A DNA stretch of 24,000 nt from Ferroglobus placidus DSM 10642 (GCF_000025505.1 NC_013849.1:685799-709798); one strand, 5' to 3'; positions 3,725-19,749 are shown, numbered from the stretch's first letter. Notes: generated by a model not told the origin, from the sequence alone. Numbers and translations are program-made.

Positions 3725-5258
3725 AGTTAAGCTGAAAAGAGAAGAGAGCGAAAGAGAAAGAATGAAAAATTTCAAGGAATTTACGGAAGTCATAAAAGAG
3801 AAGGCTGAGATTCCAGAGGGTTACGAAATTGTAGAAGATTACGAAGTTCTCGGAGACTTCGAGTTTTCGGTAGTTTTCATTTTAAAGAGAGATCACGACT
3901 ATTTTTACCACGCTGTCGAGCCGATTCTCGAGGAAGATTACGAGAAGTACAGAGAGGAGATAATTAAGAGGGTCGAGTACGCACTTCCTTACTATGCGGA
4001 TTTTAAGGATAAGGCAAAAACGATACTTTCGAGCTACGACAGGCTTCTCGAAGCTTTAAACCTCGATCCAGACGACTACCACTACTACGCTCTCCTCTAC
4101 TATTTGCTAAGAGACACGATCCTCTTCGGACCAATCACTCCTCTTATGAAGGATCGTCTGCTTGAGGATATAAGCTGTAACGGGTACGGCAAGCCTATTT
4201 ACGTTTATCACCGCAACTATCAGAACTTGCGGACGAACGTTGTTTTTTCCGAGGACGAGCTCGACAGCTTCATAATCAAGCTTGCCCAGCAGTGCGGGAA
4301 GCACATAAGCATAGCTGAGCCTATGCTCGACGCTACTCTTCCGGACGGAAGCAGAATTCAGATGACTCTGGGGAGAGAAGTAACTGACCACGGCTCGACC
4401 TTCACGATAAGAAAATTCAGAGACGTTCCTCTTACTCCTATAGACCTAATAGCTTGGAAAACGTTCAGCTTGGAGGAAATGGCTTACCTCTGGCTGTGCA
4501 TAGAAAACAAAAAGAACTTGATATTCGCAGGAGGAACTGCAAGCGGTAAAACGACGAGCATGAACGCAATAAGCCTATTCATTCCGAAGAACGCTAAAAT
4601 CGTGAGCATAGAAGATACGAGAGAAGTAATGCTCCCCCACGAAAACTGGATTCCGGCTGTGACGAGAGAAGGTGTCGGAGGGAAAGAGATTGACATGTAC
4701 GAGCTGCTCAGAGCAGCTCTGAGACAGAGACCGGAGTACATAATAGTCGGAGAAGTCAGAGGTAAGGAAGCTCTAACTCTGTTCCAGGCTATGTCAACCG
4801 GACACACAACTTACTCGACTTTGCATGCGGACAGCGTGAACGGAGTAATTCATCGATTGGAGAACCCGCCGATAAACGTGCCGAGGAGCATGATAGAGGC
4901 TCTCGACATAATAAGCATACAAGCTCAAGTTTACCTCGGAAATAAAAGAGTGAGAAGAAATTTGGAAATAGCAGAAATAGTGGGAATGGACCCCCACACA
5001 AAGATAATAAAGACTACAACAGTCTTCGCTTGGGACAGCGAAAAAGACGAACACTTAATGATAGGCTCCTCAAAAGTTCTCGAAGAAATAAGAAAAATGA
5101 GAGCTTGGAGCAGAAAAGAACTGGAAGAAGAACTCGAAACAAGAAAAAAAGTCCTGAAGTGGATGCTCGATAACAATATCAGAGACTACAAAGAAGTAGC
5201 TAAAATAATTCACTCGTATCAGAGCGATAAGGATAGACTGCTCGAAATGATCTCATGA
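3708..5258 (+). CDS. FlaI/VirB11/GspE-family secretion-type hexameric ATPase
   Basis: Walker A is FAGGTASGKTT, the Asp box/Walker B is IVSIEDTREV and RQRPEYIIVGEVRGKEA, and the His box is STGHTTYSTLHA. The N-terminal domain length is typical of archaeal FlaI-like ATPases. GGTGA lies 6-10 nt upstream of the ATG at 3708. The start sits 17 nt inside the preceding GTPase gene. Confidence 0.85.
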   Translation: MKLNLKVKLKREESERERMKNFKEFTEVIKEKAEIPEGYEIVEDYEVLGDFEFSVVFILKRDHDYFYHAVEPILEEDYEKYREEIIKRVEYALPYYADFKDKAKTILSSYDRLLEALNLDPDDYHYYALLYYLLRDTILFGPITPLMKDRLLEDISCNGYGKPIYVYHRNYQNLRTNVVFSEDELDSFIIKLAQQCGKHISIAEPMLDATLPDGSRIQMTLGREVTDHGSTFTIRKFRDVPLTPIDLIAWKTFSLEEMAYLWLCIENKKNLIFAGGTASGKTTSMNAISLFIPKNAKIVSIEDTREVMLPHENWIPAVTREGVGGKEIDMYELLRAALRQRPEYIIVGEVRGKEALTLFQAMSTGHTTYSTLHADSVNGVIHRLENPPINVPRSMIEALDIISIQAQVYLGNKRVRRNLEIAEIVGMDPHTKIIKTTTVFAWDSEKDEHLMIGSSKVLEEIRKMRAWSRKELEEELETRKKVLKWMLDNNIRDYKEVAKIIHSYQSDKDRLLEMIS

Positions 5259-7602: not shown

Positions 7603-7646
7603 TCCGACAACTTTTTTAAATTTTCGAAACCTCATAAGTAGAATTA

Positions 7647-12766: not shown

Positions 12767-12977
12767 TATAGAGGAAGTTAATCTTTTAGCGTATTTAGAG
12801 TTAACGAATTTTGCCTGAGTTTTCAAAACTCTACTGATCTTTCCCAGAATCGCTACGTGAAACGTTATGAAACTTTTTGAAGCGTTCTAAAGCCTTTTAT
12901 CGCTTATCTCCATTTCGTTTTATCCCCCAACATCTATTGCCCTTCAGTTCTTACTTTCAAATCAGAGGTGATGTGAG

Positions 12978-13400
12978 ATGAAAAGAAGTTTGGTGTTTAG
13001 CATATTGCTCGGGCTGGTGGCTCTGACAGCCTACGCATCAGCCCACGGATTTGGCATGATGGGGTACGGTATGGGTATGGGAGGTATGTACGGAGAGGAT
13101 ATGATGAACTACTATAACACAGACGAAGCACAGACGGAAGTGAGCGGGAAAGTTGCGGCTGTGTACCCAATGGCAATAGTACTTGAAGATGGCAAGTACA
13201 TCAGAGTTCCCTGGTGGGTTGCCGCAAATCTAGGCTTAAAGCCGGGAGATGTAGTGAAGGTCGAAGGAGTAAGCTACGGAAACGTGATAGTCCCAACGTA
13301 CATAGAAGCGAACGGTAAAACGTTCCAAAGTCCAGTTTACTACCAGAATCCGGGATACGGTTACTACTCCGGCTACCACTGCCCCATGATGGGGTGGTGA
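12978..13400 (+). CDS. Secreted Met/Gly/Tyr-rich protein (putative soft-metal-binding)
   Basis: GAGGTGAT SD lies 6 nt upstream of the ATG. A Sec-type signal peptide MKRSLVFSILLGLVALTAYASA is followed by HGFGMMGYGMGMGGMYGEDMM. A beta-rich central part and a C-terminal YYSGYHCPMMGW follow. No family was recognised by eye. Confidence 0.6.
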   Translation: MKRSLVFSILLGLVALTAYASAHGFGMMGYGMGMGGMYGEDMMNYYNTDEAQTEVSGKVAAVYPMAIVLEDGKYIRVPWWVAANLGLKPGDVVKVEGVSYGNVIVPTYIEANGKTFQSPVYYQNPGYGYYSGYHCPMMGW

Positions 13401-13433
13401 TACGATCTTCCCCAATTTTTTGGAGGTTGTGAC

Positions 13434-13682
13434 ATGATGGGATACGGTATGATGGGAGGCATGATGGGGAACAACTTCGGAGGATGGTACTTCGGCAGCT
13501 TCGTCTGGCAGATACTCTGGCTCGCGATAATAGTGGCTGTGATCTACATTCTAATGAACTCACTGAGCTCTGGAAAGAAGAGCGAAGATATGTCCCTTCA
13601 AATCTTGAAAGAGAGGCTCGCGAGAGGAGAGATCAGCCAGGAAGAATACATCAAGTTGAAAGACGCTCTATCGAGAAGTTAA
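13434..13682 (+). CDS. SHOCT-domain membrane protein with a Met/Gly-rich extracytoplasmic N-terminus
   Basis: GGAGGT SD lies 7 nt upstream. The layout is MMGYGMMGGMMGNNFGG, then one TM helix (WQILWLAIIVAVIYILM), then a C-terminal ILKERLARGEISQEEYIKLKDAL that matches the SHOCT short C-terminal domain pattern. Confidence 0.75.
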   Translation: MMGYGMMGGMMGNNFGGWYFGSFVWQILWLAIIVAVIYILMNSLSSGKKSEDMSLQILKERLARGEISQEEYIKLKDALSRS

Positions 13683-13695
13683 AGCTGTCGCAACC

Positions 13696-13721
13696 TTTTT
13701 ATACATTTATTGTAAAATAAG
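13696..13721 (+). promoter_or_regulatory. Copy 1 of the conserved ~26-nt promoter/operator-like element (TTTTTATACA-TTTATT-GTAAAATAAG)
   Basis: It ends 3 nt before the GTG of the thioredoxin-like gene. It shares 21/26 nt with copies 2 and 3 (hand count), including the exact 10-mer GTAAAATAAG. Confidence 0.5.
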
Positions 13722-13724
13722 TTC

Positions 13725-14204
13725 GTGAAAGAGAAGAGACCTCTACCAATCTTTGCGATGGCTCTCGTACTCTTCGGGGTAGCTGCGATCTTCTTTGGTG
13801 TCAACGAATACGAGGAGTATCCGATAAAATTCTACAGCCTCGAAGAGGGGTTTAAAGTTGCGAAAATGGAAAACAAGCTCGTTTTGGTTTACATCCACTC
13901 CGATACCTGCTACGTCTGCAGAGCATTCCTTGAGGATCTATCGAAGTACGAAGATTTGCAAAAAACCTTTGAAAAGTTCGTTGTTGTCAAAGTGGACTTT
14001 CTAACTGAGAGGGCTTTAGCAGTGAAGTTCGGCGCTACTGGCACTCCCGAATTCCACGTCTTCTACCCCAACGGCACGCCGATGAAAATAAATGGGGTGA
14101 GAGCAGTTTATATCGGATACGCCGGCTCTCCGGACGATGAAAAAGCGAGAAAGTCCTTAATATCTTTTCTTGAGACCGCTTTAGAAAGCTACGACAGAAG
14201 ATGA
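13725..14204 (+). CDS. Membrane-anchored thioredoxin-fold thiol:disulfide oxidoreductase
   Basis: An N-terminal TM anchor (LPIFAMALVLFGVAAIFFGV) is followed by a thioredoxin-like motif VLVYIHSDTCYVCRAF (CxxC) and a cis-Pro region GATGTPEFHVFYPNG. The start is a GTG with a TATA-like TTTTTATA 22-29 nt upstream and no SD, so the mRNA may be leaderless. An alternative ATG lies at 13758. Confidence 0.7.
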   Translation: MKEKRPLPIFAMALVLFGVAAIFFGVNEYEEYPIKFYSLEEGFKVAKMENKLVLVYIHSDTCYVCRAFLEDLSKYEDLQKTFEKFVVVKVDFLTERALAVKFGATGTPEFHVFYPNGTPMKINGVRAVYIGYAGSPDDEKARKSLISFLETALESYDRR

Positions 14205-14212
14205 TCGAAACA

Positions 14213-14238
14213 TTATTATACACCTAACGTAAAATAAG
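14213..14238 (+). promoter_or_regulatory. Copy 2 of the conserved element (TTATTATACA-CCTAAC-GTAAAATAAG)
   Basis: It ends 4 nt before the ATG of the 21-aa ORF, upstream of the rhodanese gene. The ACA-N6-GTAAAATAAG spacing is the same as in copy 1. Confidence 0.5.
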
Positions 14239-14242
14239 GAGT

Positions 14243-14308
14243 ATGAAAATCGAAAAAGTGAAGAGAGAAAAAAGAGGAGTTTGCAAGTGCCACAACTCTT
14301 GCAGCTAA
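14243..14308 (+). CDS. Candidate 21-aa Cys-rich small ORF (MKIEKVKREKRGVCKCHNSCS)
   Basis: It falls below the ORF-track size cutoff and was found by reading the 135-nt gap between the thioredoxin-like and rhodanese genes. The ATG is 4 nt after a copy of the conserved GTAAAATAAG element and about 25 nt after the TATA-like ATTATTATA, the same geometry as neighbouring genes. The basic N-half is followed by C-x-C-x3-C. There is no homology support. Confidence 0.3.
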   Translation: MKIEKVKREKRGVCKCHNSCS

Positions 14309-14339
14309 AATCAAATTTTTATTTTTTGGAGGTGGTTGC

Positions 14340-14735
14340 TTGTCCGGAAAGTTAATAACAGCTTTTGCTATCGGCATCGTTGCAGCGTTTCTGCTCTACA
14401 ACAGCTTCGTTCTCTTTCCAAAGGAAAAAGCCTTCAAATCTGTATCTCCTGAAGAATTTTACAAGCTAATGCAGAACGAAGAAGCTTTTGTAATAGACGT
14501 TCACGTTCCGGAGCAGAAACATTTAAACGGAACCGATGCTTGGATACCCTACGACAGGATTGAAGAGTTCAAAGACCTCTTACCCAAAGACAAGAACACT
14601 CCCATCCTCGTTTACTGCAGATCCGGACAGATGAGTAAAATTGCCGCTTCAAAACTCGCTCAGATTGGATACAAAAACATCTACGAACTTGATGGAGGTA
14701 TTTTAGCTTGGCAAAGAGCCAATCTACCTTACTGA
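14340..14735 (+). CDS. Membrane-anchored single-domain rhodanese (sulfurtransferase)
   Basis: A TTG start is preceded by a strong SD GGAGGTGG (14328-14335). An N-terminal TM helix (LITAFAIGIVAAFLLYNSFVLF) is followed by a rhodanese fold with the active-site loop YCRSGQMS and a C-terminal LDGGILAW. Confidence 0.8.
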   Translation: MSGKLITAFAIGIVAAFLLYNSFVLFPKEKAFKSVSPEEFYKLMQNEEAFVIDVHVPEQKHLNGTDAWIPYDRIEEFKDLLPKDKNTPILVYCRSGQMSKIAASKLAQIGYKNIYELDGGILAWQRANLPY

Positions 14736-14736
14736 G

Positions 14737-15273
14737 CTAAACAAATCCCCACGGAGTTGAAGAGTACTTCCACACCGCTATTAAAACTGAGAAAATCAAT
14801 ACCACAATTTTCAATTTTTCGTAGTCCACGAACATAACTTTGGCAAGAAAACTCGAATCTTCGAAGAGGGCATTTTTCTGTATAGTCGAGAGCATCCATA
14901 CCGTCCCAACCACACTTGATAAAACGCCAATCAGAAGGAAGAACTCCGTGTACAACGTGAGAAAATAGCTTATTCCCACCCCAAGTAGAGGAACTGCATC
15001 AGTGACATGGTGGAGACAGCAAGCGACCATGCTTCCTGCTGAAATCCCTCCGGTGGCTATGCTTTTACAACTTTCACGATAGGATTTTATGTGGGTGTAG
15101 AGTGCAATCTGCAAACCAAAGCCAGCGCTGATCGGGAATACGTACATCCAGTAATTTTTTAGATTCCAAATAACTCCTTCATAACCAGCTGCGGCGTAAT
15201 TCACGAGAATATAGAAGGTAAGGAGAGAAATAAAAGCTATAAAACCATTTCTCACTTCTTTCATATCTCCCAC
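14737..15273 (-). CDS. Polytopic membrane protein with an intramembrane vicinal-cysteine/His motif (GSMVACCLHHV)
   Basis: 178 aa with about five hydrophobic helices. The third helix carries ISAGSMVACCLHHVTDAVPLLG. The start overlaps the upstream gene by 13 nt. The family was not recognised by eye. Confidence 0.6.
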   Translation of the reverse strand: MGDMKEVRNGFIAFISLLTFYILVNYAAAGYEGVIWNLKNYWMYVFPISAGFGLQIALYTHIKSYRESCKSIATGGISAGSMVACCLHHVTDAVPLLGVGISYFLTLYTEFFLLIGVLSSVVGTVWMLSTIQKNALFEDSSFLAKVMFVDYEKLKIVVLIFSVLIAVWKYSSTPWGFV

Positions 15274-15692
15274 TCCAAAACCCTCTCACTCTCCAGCTTC
15301 ACAACAAGTTTGAATTTTCCAGCTCTTTCTATTTCTTTCAGCGCCTCTTCGGGAAACTCAAGAATTCCGATTCTGTGATGTCCCCAAGATTTTTCGTCTT
15401 CTTTCCAAGAAACCGGTGAAAACTTTTTTCCGCCTACCTCAAGAGTCGTTCCATTTACTATGTCGTAGATGTATAGGTCTCCGGAGTGCGTGTCGAGTCT
15501 GAAGTAAAAGGTCGGCTTCGTCAATTCTGGATACTTCGGGTTCAGGTACATGGCGGTAACCTGCACATTACCGTAACTGACCTTGACGAGATCCTCTTCT
15601 TTCAATTCCTTAGGTTTGCCGTAGAAGTTATAGAGAATCACAAACACTCCGGCAAAAATGAGAATTGCAGCAATCAACAATTTCCTGTCCAT
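15261..15692 (-). CDS. Membrane-anchored extracytoplasmic protein with His motifs (DTHSGD, GHHR), function unknown
   Basis: An N-terminal TM anchor (LLIAAILIFAGVFVILY) is followed by a beta-rich domain with FYFRLDTHSGDLY and SWGHHRIGILEF. The ATG (15690-15692) abuts the palindromic element. An ATATATA box lies about 27 nt upstream on the coding strand. Confidence 0.55.
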   Translation of the reverse strand: MDRKLLIAAILIFAGVFVILYNFYGKPKELKEEDLVKVSYGNVQVTAMYLNPKYPELTKPTFYFRLDTHSGDLYIYDIVNGTTLEVGGKKFSPVSWKEDEKSWGHHRIGILEFPEEALKEIERAGKFKLVVKLESERVLEWEI

Positions 15693-15716
15693 GTTTTACA
15701 TTTGATGTAAAATAAG
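15691..15716 (+). promoter_or_regulatory. Copy 3 of the conserved element, the most symmetric copy (GTTTTACA-TTTGA-TGTAAAAT)
   Basis: It lies in the 42-nt gap between the copG-like gene and the His-motif gene. Its left edge overlaps the ATG (15690-15692) of the minus-strand gene. A 7-bp perfect inverted repeat TTTTACA/TGTAAAA has a 5-nt spacer. An ATATATA box (15718-15724) flanks it. A further GTTTTACA occurs at 15732-15739. Confidence 0.5.
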
Positions 15717-15734
15717 GTATATATCGTTTTTGTT

Positions 15735-16178
15735 TTACACTTCGTCGAAGATGCCAGTGCGACTTCCCGAGGTGTAGTATATTTTAAAGGGCTTGCTTTT
15801 AACTCCCGGCATTCCAGGAGAGCCCGTCGGCATTCCGGGAAGGGAAATTCCTTCTATAGCTGGTTTTTCCTTTAAAAGTTTGTCTATAGCCTCTCTTGGC
15901 ACGTGTCCGATAACGTAGTAGCCCCCAATGTAAGATACGTGGCAGCTCCAGAGTTTTCTTGGGACTCCGTGTTTCTCGTAAATTTTCGTTAAGCTTTTAA
16001 CGTTCACGATTTCAACTTCGTAACCTTCTCCTTCAAGGTACTCCGCATACTTCTCACAACACCCGCAAGCTTCGGGTTTGTAGATCACAACCTGCGATGG
16101 AGCGTTGCCGAAGTTTAAGTAAAGACCGAAAGCTAAAATTACTCCCAGCCCCACCACAAGAAGACTCAAAATTCTCAT
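15735..16178 (-). CDS. copG: CopG/DUF411-family metal-binding protein
   Basis: An N-terminal TM/signal segment is followed by CGCCEKYAEYL, GVPRKLWSCHVSYIGGYYVIGHVPREAIDKLL and SLPGMPTGSPGMPG. This matches the DUF411 signature CxCC...SCH...GHVP...PGMPxGSPGM essentially motif for motif. Confidence 0.85.
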   Translation of the reverse strand: MRILSLLVVGLGVILAFGLYLNFGNAPSQVVIYKPEACGCCEKYAEYLEGEGYEVEIVNVKSLTKIYEKHGVPRKLWSCHVSYIGGYYVIGHVPREAIDKLLKEKPAIEGISLPGMPTGSPGMPGVKSKPFKIYYTSGSRTGIFDEV

Positions 16179-16205
16179 GGAGAGAGGCGGTCGAAAAAGT
16201 ATAAG

Positions 16206-16231
16206 TATTTTTTCATTAGGTGTAAAATATG
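16206..16231 (+). promoter_or_regulatory. Copy 4 of the conserved element (TATTTTTTCA-TTAGGT-GTAAAATATG)
   Basis: It lies in the 50-nt divergent region between copG and the methyltransferase. Its last three bases are the methyltransferase ATG. It matches copy 1 at 19/26 nt with identical spacing. Confidence 0.45.
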
Positions 16232-16840
16232 GTGAAAAAGGGATTGGATAAGAAAAGGTACGATAGAGTTGCTAAATTTTACGATATCTTTGAGTCTCCC
16301 ATGGAACTCTTGGCTTTTTCCTCTTGGAGAAGGGAACTTACGAAAAATGTCGAAGGTAACCTCGTCCTTGAAGTGGGAATCGGAACCGGAAAAAATATAC
16401 CATACTACAAAAACTGGGAGGTAGTTGGAGTTGACATAAGCAGAAGGATGCTGGAAAGAGCCGTAAAGAGGGTTAAAGAGAACAAAAAAGTTGTTCATCT
16501 GATCCAAGCTGACGCTGAAAGTTTACCTTTCAAGGATGGTGTTTTCGACGCAATCATATCCACCTACGTTTTTTGTTCCGTGGAGAATCCGATAAACGGG
16601 CTCAGAGAACTCCACAGAGTTCTGAAGAAAGGTGGCAAAGCGTATTTTCTCGAACACATGAGGAGCGAAAGTGAATTCGTCGGAAAAATTCTCGACATCC
16701 TAAACCCCCTCTTCAGAAAGCTCGGTCCGGAGATAAACAGGAGAACTGCAGAGAATATAAAGAAAGCTGGATTCAAAATAGTTGAGGAGAGGCACTTAAT
16801 GACGTCTATTTTCAGAATGATAGTGGCTGAAAAAAGTTAG
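16229..16840 (+). CDS. Class I SAM-dependent methyltransferase (UbiE/Methyltransf_11-like)
   Basis: The N-terminus has YDRVAKFYD. Motif I is VLEVGIGTGKN. The post-I acidic residue is GVDIS. Also present are FDAIISTYVFCSV and LKKGGKAYFLEH. Confidence 0.8.
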   Translation: MVKKGLDKKRYDRVAKFYDIFESPMELLAFSSWRRELTKNVEGNLVLEVGIGTGKNIPYYKNWEVVGVDISRRMLERAVKRVKENKKVVHLIQADAESLPFKDGVFDAIISTYVFCSVENPINGLRELHRVLKKGGKAYFLEHMRSESEFVGKILDILNPLFRKLGPEINRRTAENIKKAGFKIVEERHLMTSIFRMIVAEKS

Positions 16841-17967: not shown

Positions 17968-18000
17968 AAAATAAATCGTGATGAATGCCGTTTTAGAATT

Positions 18001-18034
18001 TCGGTTGGAATAAAAATTAAAAAATTTAATTTTT
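18001..18034 (-). terminator. Oligo-T tracts and an A/T-only hairpin downstream of the surface-protein gene (putative archaeal terminator, also the promoter region of the next gene)
   Basis: On the minus strand, right after the stop (18035-18037), the sequence is AAAAATTAAATTTTTTAATTTTTATTCC, with T6 and T5 runs. AAAAATTAAA (18012-18021) and TTTAATTTTT (18025-18034) form a perfect 10-bp inverted repeat with a 3-nt loop. Confidence 0.3.
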
Positions 18035-19570: not shown

Positions 19571-19749
19571 GACTATTTAAACTTTTCATTAATAAAAATT
19601 TTTATATTAGGAAATTATAATAACTCAATTTATTTCAAATATTTTAACAGATGTAAAATTTAATCATAAAAAATTAAATTCCTTTTCCAGAACAAATGTC
19701 AACTCGTTACGTGATAAAATTTTTAGGGTTACGAAAATTTACTACCACC

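Follow-up and report, generated by a model that had tools for sequence, protein, structure and literature searches.

Conserved promoter dyads in Ferroglobus placidus and related Archaeoglobaceae: candidate operators of a BlaI-like repressor

A 24,000-nucleotide (nt) stretch of the Ferroglobus placidus DSM 10642 genome (positions 685799-709798 of 2,196,266 bp, 44% G+C; hereafter the window) contains an island of genes for membrane-anchored and exported proteins, at whose promoters a short repeat occurs four times. These repeats are real copies of a palindromic site located on core promoters. The dyad is predicted to be a protein-binding site and not a hairpin, and the four copies are probably operators, that is, binding sites for one dimeric winged-helix repressor. 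Compared with the original prediction, which had been made from the window alone, the putative regulon is extended to cytochrome c maturation, and a probable regulator as well as a second candidate can be named.

Sequence, rarity and promoter position of the dyad

Reading of both strands shows that the copies have in common a 27-bp dyad of the form CTTATTTTACA-N5-TGTAAAATAAG (Table 1). The exact 10-mer by which it had been recognized, GTAAAATAAG, is indeed located at 13712, 14229 and 15707, with GTAAAATATG at 16222, and an (A/T)CA lies exactly 6 nt upstream of each copy. As proposed, the core TTTTACA-N5-TGTAAAA is perfect in copy 3, and the other copies match it at 6-7 of 7 positions per arm. 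The identity of the 26-mers had been overestimated at 19-21 of 26 positions; pairwise counting gave 15-21 of 26, with the lowest value for copy 2 versus copy 4. The spacing to the start codons was as described: 3 nt separate copy 1 from the GTG at 13725 and 4 nt separate copy 2 from the ATG at 14243, and the minus-strand ATG at 15692-15690 and the ATG at 16229 lie inside copies 3 and 4 respectively. The suggestion that every transcription unit of the island has a copy goes too far, as two units show. The promoter of the unit encoding a Met-rich 140-aa protein and a SHOCT protein (12827-12977) contains no copy (best score -10.5 bits), and the DUF411 gene has none of its own, copy 4 being common to this gene and the divergent methyltransferase gene. 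The other promoter regions of the window from which the motif had been reported absent (2024-2146, 7603-7646, 12827-12977 and 17968-18034) all scored negative.

Counted on both strands of the whole genome, GTAAAATAAG occurs six times, three of them within this 2 kb. Because simple IUPAC patterns did not discriminate well enough between sites and background, position weight matrices (PWMs) and a sequence-only Infernal model were used instead. With a palindromic PWM built from related sites, the four copies scored 25.9-36.7 bits, and five Markov-1 random genomes of the same size peaked at 14.2-17.6 bits. The sole comparable site of the genome outside the window is located at 1107200 (26.9 bits), 5 nt before the gene of a 149-aa anchored protein; the next-best site reached 19.1 bits. 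The best upstream scores of approximately 2,190 crude gene starts had a 99th percentile of 5.8 bits, and the five highest belonged to the 143-aa gene, the thioredoxin-like gene, the methyltransferase and DUF411 genes (the last two via copy 4) and one other gene. A similar frequency of the motif upstream of unrelated genes would have spoken against an operator. Genome-wide this was not the case, and because the 99th percentile of 5.8 bits is so far below the 26-37 bits of the copies, the dyad is not a generic promoter consensus.

Measured as distances, and with the start sites predicted, the spacing from the dyad to the TATA-like box and to the start codon is constant within each of three promoter classes. 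Class I comprises copies 1 and 2, the strong site at 1107200 and the promoter of the putative repressor gene described below; here the left arm itself serves as TATA box (TTTTATAC or TTATTATA) and the start codon follows 3-7 nt past the dyad. To class II belong copies 3 and 4 with all orthologous sites; their TATA box, 8 bp long, directly adjoins the dyad, whose positions 25-27 are the ATG. Class III consists of cytochrome c maturation promoters in relatives, whose TATA box also adjoins the dyad; here the start codon is located 7-9 nt past the dyad, behind GGTG. The dyad thus always lies over the TATA box or fills the gap between TATA box and start codon. An archaeal TATA box is normally centred approximately 26 nt before the start site, which places the predicted start site at or just before the start codon in all three classes, with the dyad occupying the region from TATA box to start. 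The genes under the dyads are therefore apparently leaderless, and the position of the dyad fits repression. This is consistent with the repressor-operator position that had been suggested from the window. A search of public sequencing runs for transcript support turned up DNA and metagenome runs only.

The DUF411 ATG (16178, minus strand) and the methyltransferase ATG (16229, plus strand) are only 50 nt apart and have a single TATA-like box (16197-16204) between them. The region 16178-16231 is a candidate bidirectional promoter with one common TATA element, and since this box is at promoter distance from both ATGs, one bound dimer could affect both promoters.

Conservation of the dyad among Archaeoglobaceae

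We compared 96 genomes of the class Archaeoglobi. Conservation upstream of orthologues, which had been put forward as a check, was found in at least five genera of the Archaeoglobaceae: the dyad is kept at the promoters of the operon encoding the 143-aa protein and a polytopic membrane protein with a CC-HH motif, of the methyltransferase gene, and of the unit formed by a small open reading frame (ORF) and a rhodanese gene. With a PWM made from the four window copies alone, every searched locus of four genera (Ferroglobus, Geoglobus and two others) already showed the dyad where the 143-aa operon begins, and it was also detected before the methyltransferase gene (Ferroglobus and Geoglobus) and before the small ORF/rhodanese unit. 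The site orthologous to copy 3 is present in 12 related loci, sites orthologous to copy 4 precede the methyltransferase gene in loci L002, L015, L019, L020 and L066, and the arrangement of copy 2 occurs in five genomes. Because the proteins flanking the conserved sites are only 45-65% identical between genera, the conservation of the dyad represents a phylogenetic footprint.

Alignment of 27 sites revealed six invariant positions, T6, T8 and C10 in the left arm and G18, A20 and A22 in the right arm. Columns 8-11 read T-(A/T)-C-A and columns 17-20 T-G-(T/A)-A, and the spacer between TACA and TGTA was 5 nt in 27 of 27 sites. The resulting operator model is precise (27 bp, six invariant bases). 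Arm pairing at the dyad sites equalled that of shuffled controls (76.3% versus 76.4%), as did covariation (0.172 versus 0.171), and the hairpin reading was rejected on these grounds. As the arms are conserved without covariation, their symmetry would reflect two identical protein contacts.

A sequence-only Infernal model derived from the 27 sites and searched against the 96 genomes gave matches at E<0.01 in only 15 of them. Candidatus Hydrothermarchaeum profundi (L105, 4113-6952) possesses the 143-aa/CC-HH gene pair and no dyad at this locus, and thus the operator has a narrower distribution than its target genes. Tandem pairs of dyads, spaced exactly 25 nt, occur at L024 (7077/7102), L062 (3259/3284) and L070 (2688/2713), in three genomes that include G048.

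The candidate regulator and its alternatives

The products of 12978-16840 include no DNA-binding protein, which agrees with the earlier statement that the regulator is not encoded in the island. From the sequence matches, distribution and linkage described below, we regard as the likely reader of the dyad a BlaI/MecI/CopY-family (Penicillinase_R) repressor encoded elsewhere in the genome (Table 1). MecI aligns with this protein over its full length, and among solved structures MecI and BlaI were its best matches in both sequence and fold; in the structural model the C-terminal part is predicted to form one long helix. The orthologues show little or no variation in the recognition helix, SSVAATLDRL. 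The F. placidus protein contains no cysteine and none is conserved in 14 orthologues, so that it is not a CopY-type metal sensor. The repressor gene appears to be translationally coupled to the gene of an M48 HExxH membrane peptidase, and this gene pair was found in eight further loci. The peptidase has no penicillin-binding domain and no recognisable sensor domain. Three cysteines, two in an N-terminal CxxxC motif and one in an SMSCDM loop, are kept in all ten orthologues seen (L077-L092); according to the positive-inside rule they would be exposed on the outer membrane face, with the HExxH domain in the cytoplasm. Members of the BlaI/CopY family bind TACA/TGTA half-sites (PMC7253601), and these half-sites are present in the TACA-N5-TGTA core of the dyad.

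Strong orthologues of the repressor are encoded in 19 of the 96 genomes, 16 of which contain the motif at E<0.03. The best matches in the other three were weak (E = 0.04-0.13), one of them located just upstream of the repressor gene itself. Among the 77 genomes without the gene the motif was found in four, including one incomplete metagenome-assembled genome (MAG). Gene and motif also co-vary within the genera g2, g3 and g11 (three genomes with both and three with neither in g3; six with both and three with neither in g11), and four genomes outside the training of the model (G013, G014, G040 and G043) all have both. In ten genomes the repressor/peptidase pair lies 0.6-4.6 kb from dyad-bearing cytochrome c maturation (ccm) or island loci, usually tail-to-tail with a second CcmH gene. 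Furthermore, the promoters of the repressor genes themselves carry degenerate dyads at a fixed position (-29 to -34), which exceed the 95th percentile in 13 of 18 cases (p = 8e-14).

Several points weigh against this assignment. Start sites, leaderless status and repression are predicted from geometry. The spacer of the dyad is 5 nt and does not match the 2-nt spacer of the characterised family operator TACANNTGTA (PMC7253601). In F. placidus the site at the repressor's own promoter scores only 12.9 bits, within the range of random genomes, and the repressor gene is unlinked to the island. The Fisher test for the association between repressor gene and motif (p = 6e-12) overstates the independence of genomes that are phylogenetically related, and many positive genomes had supplied sites for training the model. 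Two genomes do not conform: G042 (a MAG, 92% complete) has strong dyads and no BlaI-like gene, and G048 has tandem dyads and neither candidate regulator at the thresholds used. The M48 peptidase lacks a recognisable sensor domain and the signal proposed below is a guess. Finally, a second family of winged helix-turn-helix (wHTH) proteins is also linked to the dyads.

Proteins of this second family are membrane-anchored and consist of two transmembrane helices, a nearly invariant outward loop (S/T-HHYMMMGPYY) and a C-terminal DUF7343/MarR-like wHTH domain. They look like one-component sensors of extracytoplasmic metal; we found nothing on DUF7343 in the literature. The family occurs in at least 24 of the 96 Archaeoglobi genomes, including Archaeoglobus fulgidus (L027-L050), and three paralogues are encoded in F. 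placidus (Table 1). If such a protein were the reader of the dyad, its His/Met loop would sense extracytoplasmic copper directly, with DNA being bound at the membrane. A loop of this kind suits a regulon of exported copper-type proteins, and the genomic linkage is considerable. One paralogue is located 0.5 kb from the strong site at 1107200; the G003 gene and ccmG diverge from an 85-bp gap that contains a dyad (L065); in G041 and G044 (Geoglobus) it lies beside the methyltransferase gene and has a 23-24-bit dyad over its own start codon; and a variant in G053 and G054 points away from the 143-aa operon, the region between the two containing the dyad (L016). Overall, 17 of 20 motif-positive genomes encode a family member. 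Still, we consider it unlikely that the dyad is read by these proteins. Their recognition helix is almost identical in all orthologues, including those of A. fulgidus (G001), G009 and G017, yet there is no dyad in these genomes: G001 and G017 gave no motif match at E<=2 and G009 only a weak one (E = 0.58), and all three lack a BlaI-like gene. Among the five genomes that encode the membrane wHTH family and no BlaI-like gene, the motif was detected only in the incomplete G042. Moreover, none of the three F. placidus paralogues has a dyad at its own promoter, and the same is true of most orthologues elsewhere. Because genomes with the same recognition helix and no BlaI-like gene are devoid of the motif, we placed this family behind the BlaI-like repressor. 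Its pattern is more that of a regulon member than of the regulator, and it probably has this role in some lineages.

It is less likely again that the dyad is the operator of some other transcription factor and that both linked wHTH genes are passengers or targets. Archaeal genomes encode many uncharacterised wHTH proteins, the 5-nt spacer is unlike the known BlaI/CopY operator, and the tandem dyads of G048 (25.6 and 18.7 bits) occur where neither candidate was detectable. However, the contig concerned in G048 comes from a MAG, is only 10 kb long and is possibly mis-binned, no other DNA-binding gene recurs beside dyads in the approximately 40 loci examined, and two different families are already strongly linked to and co-distributed with the motif. 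The AT-rich, TATA-like arms (the left arm is plausibly a TATA box in two copies) and the location of all copies within 2.5 kb of each other might suggest that leaderless genes in general have such an initiator or core-promoter consensus, that a promoter cassette was duplicated recently or that the repeat forms a hairpin. All of this is highly improbable given the upstream-score distribution, the invariant C10 and G18, which are not a TATA-box feature, the separate TATA boxes that abut the dyad in the other promoter classes, the differing flanks outside the common 27 bp, the conservation of the sites between genera whose flanking proteins have diverged, and the lack of covariation between the arms.

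If the BlaI-like protein is the repressor, a dimer bound at the class I copies 1 and 2 would occupy the left-arm TATA box and block TBP/TFB. At copies 3 and 4 it would cover approximately -24 to +3 and block RNA polymerase, as it would at class III promoters, and at copy 4 it would also cover the side of the divergent DUF411 promoter that carries the TFB recognition element (BRE). By analogy with BlaI/BlaR1, an envelope signal might activate the M48 peptidase, whereupon the repressor would be removed and all units de-repressed together. Copper or thiol-oxidative damage to cytochrome c assembly may be this signal, and the three outward cysteines of the peptidase are a speculative sensor.

In position, the proposed repression resembles that by MDR1 of A. 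fulgidus, Phr, TrmB and LrpA, dimeric HTH proteins that bind a dyad overlapping or following the TATA box and block the recruitment of TBP/TFB or RNA polymerase; the protein families and motifs differ. To our knowledge, none of these regulators is inactivated by a partner membrane protease. The motif TTNNCAWWWTGNNAA of Pyrococcus furiosus CopR (Lrp/TRASH), a semi-palindrome, is likewise archaeal, and its TTnnCA/TGnnAA arms share letters with TTTACA/TGTAAA. Unlike our dyad, however, the CopR site has a 3-nt spacer and lies upstream of the BRE, and CopR is a copper-responsive Lrp octamer that also activates (PMC7830388). A CopR-type site (TTNNCA-W3-TGNNAA upstream of the BRE) was rejected for the dyad, which has a 5-nt spacer and is placed on the TATA box or past it. 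In the loci examined, the dyads had no Lrp/TRASH gene linked to them; no genome-wide search aimed at such a gene was made.

The closest similarities are to the BlaI/MecI-BlaR1/MecR1 systems of Staphylococcus aureus and Bacillus licheniformis, where the gene of the Penicillinase_R winged-helix repressor likewise adjoins, and is coupled with, that of an HExxH membrane peptidase. Inverted TACA/TGTA half-sites are common to both (PMC7253601). Those systems also have operators that overlap the core promoter, several per regulon and one of them at the repressor's own promoter; the dyads here are predicted to be placed in the same manner, the site of the repressor itself being a degenerate candidate. 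In contrast to these systems, the archaeal half-sites are 5 nt apart instead of 2 and have conserved flanks, so that the site measures 27 bp in total, the sites lie on TATA/BRE promoters of apparently leaderless genes, and the C-terminal part of the repressor is modelled as a single long helix. The 215-aa M48-type peptidase lacks the penicillin-binding sensor domain of BlaR1, and the predicted targets are ccm and exported metal/thiol proteins instead of beta-lactamase or PBP2a. The cop-box repressors CopY/CopR of Enterococcus, Streptococcus and Lactococcus (RNYKACANNYGTMRNY) belong to the same family and recognize a KACA/TGTM half-site core (PMC7253601). Copper-related targets are plausible here as well (DUF411/CopG-like protein, Met-rich neighbours), but the archaeal repressor lacks the C-terminal CxC...CxC copper/zinc switch, is paired with a peptidase as BlaI is, and has a different operator spacing, and no P-type ATPase or CopZ gene is located under a dyad in this window. 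CenIR and the non-canonical BlaIR pairs of Clostridioides difficile likewise combine a BlaI-type repressor with a BlaR-type metalloprotease lacking a penicillin-binding domain, and such pairs are described as common in bacteria. CenIR differs in being bacterial and in having an M56-type protease with a C-terminal tail; the text searched gives no operator motif for it, and cytochrome c maturation is not connected with it there (PMC13492132).

A switch made of a repressor and a membrane protease has so far been studied only in bacteria, and our literature search found no study of an archaeal BlaI-type regulon. We know of very few archaeal regulons that have been defined from operator through regulator, and of nothing on the control of c-type cytochrome assembly in iron-respiring Archaeoglobales, whose cytochrome set is unusually large. 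If the BlaI-like candidate is right, a repressor/protease pair would be tied to its targets and BlaIR proteins would have a physiological role outside antibiotic resistance. By analogy with BlaI/BlaR1, we tentatively suggest, while regarding it as somewhat doubtful, that Archaea use regulated proteolysis of this type as an envelope-stress pathway: the minimal M48 peptidase would sense copper or thiol damage or stalled cytochrome c assembly via its cysteine triad and destroy the repressor, and thereby a second ccm system and exported copper/thiol proteins would be de-repressed in Fe(III)-respiring Archaeoglobales. In Archaea, the BlaI family would thereby have a defined regulon, operator and physiological role for the first time, and an ancestral, non-antibiotic function of BlaIR systems would be suggested.

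The predicted regulon and its genes

The Infernal model identified new sites, none of which had been used in training, in G003, G012, G013, G037, G040, G043, G053, G054 and G056. They are followed by genes for a monohaem cytochrome c of approximately 125 aa with a PGF-CTERM anchor, CcmH-like proteins (CPCGCG motif), a second CcmF and a CcmG-like thioredoxin. A CcmH-CcmF2-CcmH cluster is peculiar to Fe(III)-reducing Archaeoglobales, and the F. placidus CcmH-CcmF-CcmH genes have been published as Ferp_1362-1364 (PMC4600277). The same two ccm promoters in this genome (1168939 and 1169323) have weaker dyads of 13.8 and 14.1 bits, ranking 7-8 among 2,188 upstream regions; we found no expression data for Ferp_1361-1364 in the literature. 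The regulon is thus predicted to reach beyond the island to the cytochrome c maturation cluster, strongly in relatives and more weakly here.

Judged by the genes that follow the dyads, the predicted regulon comprises cytochrome c maturation, exported thiol-redox proteins (thioredoxin-like, rhodanese) and copper-type proteins (DUF411/CopG-like, CGCC) with Met-rich neighbours. The 143-aa protein, the CC-HH membrane protein, a small CKCH peptide and the UbiE-like methyltransferase appear to be further members, and the conserved target set ties these four to ccm and the copper-type exported proteins. For the 'metal or sulfur' theme of the original prediction, exported copper/thiol proteins together with cytochrome c maturation are the more fitting description. 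Copper poisons periplasmic cytochrome c assembly in bacteria, and a combination of ccm with copper/thiol functions would therefore be sensible. In a Geoglobus MAG (L063, 4893-12835) dyads at 4472 and 7900 flank a copper-type cluster that encodes a Met-rich protein ending in CPMMGW, three P-type ATPases, an ArsR-like regulator and a SHOCT protein; this arrangement supports the copper theme of the regulon.

Table 1. Dyads, island genes and candidate regulator genes (window positions, or genome positions where indicated)
Feature	Position	Strand	Remarks
Dyad copy 1	13695-13721		CTTTTTATACA-TTTAT-TGTAAAATAAG; 27.6 bits; left arm doubles as TATA-like box TTTTATAC (13697-13704)
Dyad copy 2	14212-14238		ATTATTATACA-CCTAA-CGTAAAATAAG; 31.4 bits; left arm is TATA-like box (14213-14220)
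Dyad copy 3	15690-15716		Serves the minus-strand promoter; perfect TTTTACA-N5-TGTAAAA core; 36.7 bits, genome maximum; TATA box ATATATAC (15724-15717) abuts dyad; ATG of 143-aa gene (15692-15690) forms last three bases
Dyad copy 4	16205-16231		GTATTTTTTCA-TTAGG-TGTAAAATATG; 25.9 bits; TATA-like box (16197-16204) abuts dyad, at promoter distance also from divergent DUF411 ATG (16178); methyltransferase ATG forms last three bases
Possible degenerate fifth window site	19636-19662		8.3 bits, approximately rank 14 of 2,188 upstream regions, alone not significant; precedes nitroreductase gene (start 19696)
Membrane-anchored thioredoxin-like protein, 159 aa	13725-14204	+	Pfam Thioredoxin_2/7; predicted target of copy 1
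21-codon Cys-rich ORF MKIEKVKREKRGVCKCHNSCS	14243-14308	+	First gene past copy 2
Membrane-anchored rhodanese, 131 aa	14340-14735	+	Pfam Rhodanese; GGAGGTG ribosome-binding site upstream
178-aa polytopic membrane protein (CC-HH)	14737-15273	-	Motif GSMVACCLHHVTD; overlaps 143-aa gene
143-aa anchored protein, family unassigned	15261-15692	-	First gene of operon under copy 3
DUF411 (CopG-like) exported protein	15735-16178	-	Pfam DUF411, 81 bits; CGCC and MPxGSPGM motifs; promoter abuts copy 4
UbiE/MenG-like S-adenosylmethionine (SAM) methyltransferase, 203 aa	16229-16840	+	Pfam and NCBIfam; predicted target of copy 4
M48 HExxH membrane peptidase, 215 aa	766196-766843 (genome)	-	Pfam Peptidase_M48; HEKFH; 4-nt overlap with repressor gene
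Penicillinase_R protein (candidate repressor), 117 aa	766840-767193 (genome)		57 kb downstream of window; Pfam 58 bits versus cut-off 22.6
Membrane wHTH paralogue	819289-819795 (genome)	-	
Membrane wHTH paralogue	1107677-1108135 (genome)	-	
Membrane wHTH paralogue	1521377-1521919 (genome)	-	

Within the island, the 143-aa protein had no match in Pfam or NCBIfam, and its orthologues were found in 14 of the 96 genomes; the invariant residues of their alignment include H69, W103, H105 and H106. Its model is a generic Ig-like sandwich (predicted local distance difference test score, pLDDT, 86) with no PDB match below E = 0.006. The CC-HH gene is always located downstream of the 143-aa gene. In H. 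profundi the pair adjoins two thioredoxin-like proteins. Since the pair is found outside Archaeoglobi too, it can be described, from its distribution and invariant His and Trp residues, as a putative independent module.

The 21-codon ORF past copy 2 has the consensus MK[IV]xKVxRxKxG[VI]CKCHxSC[SNA] in five genomes of three genera (the window, L002, L015, L060 and L063), and its start is always 3-5 nt past the dyad. Because of this conservation and constant position, it is a real gene for a Cys/His micropeptide heading the rhodanese unit; the rhodanese gene is probably co-transcribed with it. Two Geoglobus genomes have another ORF, of 33 codons, at this position. The orthologues of the thioredoxin-like protein adjoin a rhodanese gene in Geoglobus.

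The DUF411 gene has its own dyad in G056 (L057, site 752). The dyad at the methyltransferase ATG is conserved in Ferroglobus and Geoglobus genomes, in agreement with the proposal of a regulon joining the island to the methyltransferase. Of the degenerate site at 19636-19662, the right arm (GATGTAAAAT) is good. The nitroreductase gene behind this site directly follows the methyltransferase gene in the sister species G037, and the phosphoesterase and arylsulfotransferase-like genes that intervene in F. placidus therefore look like an insertion in this genome.

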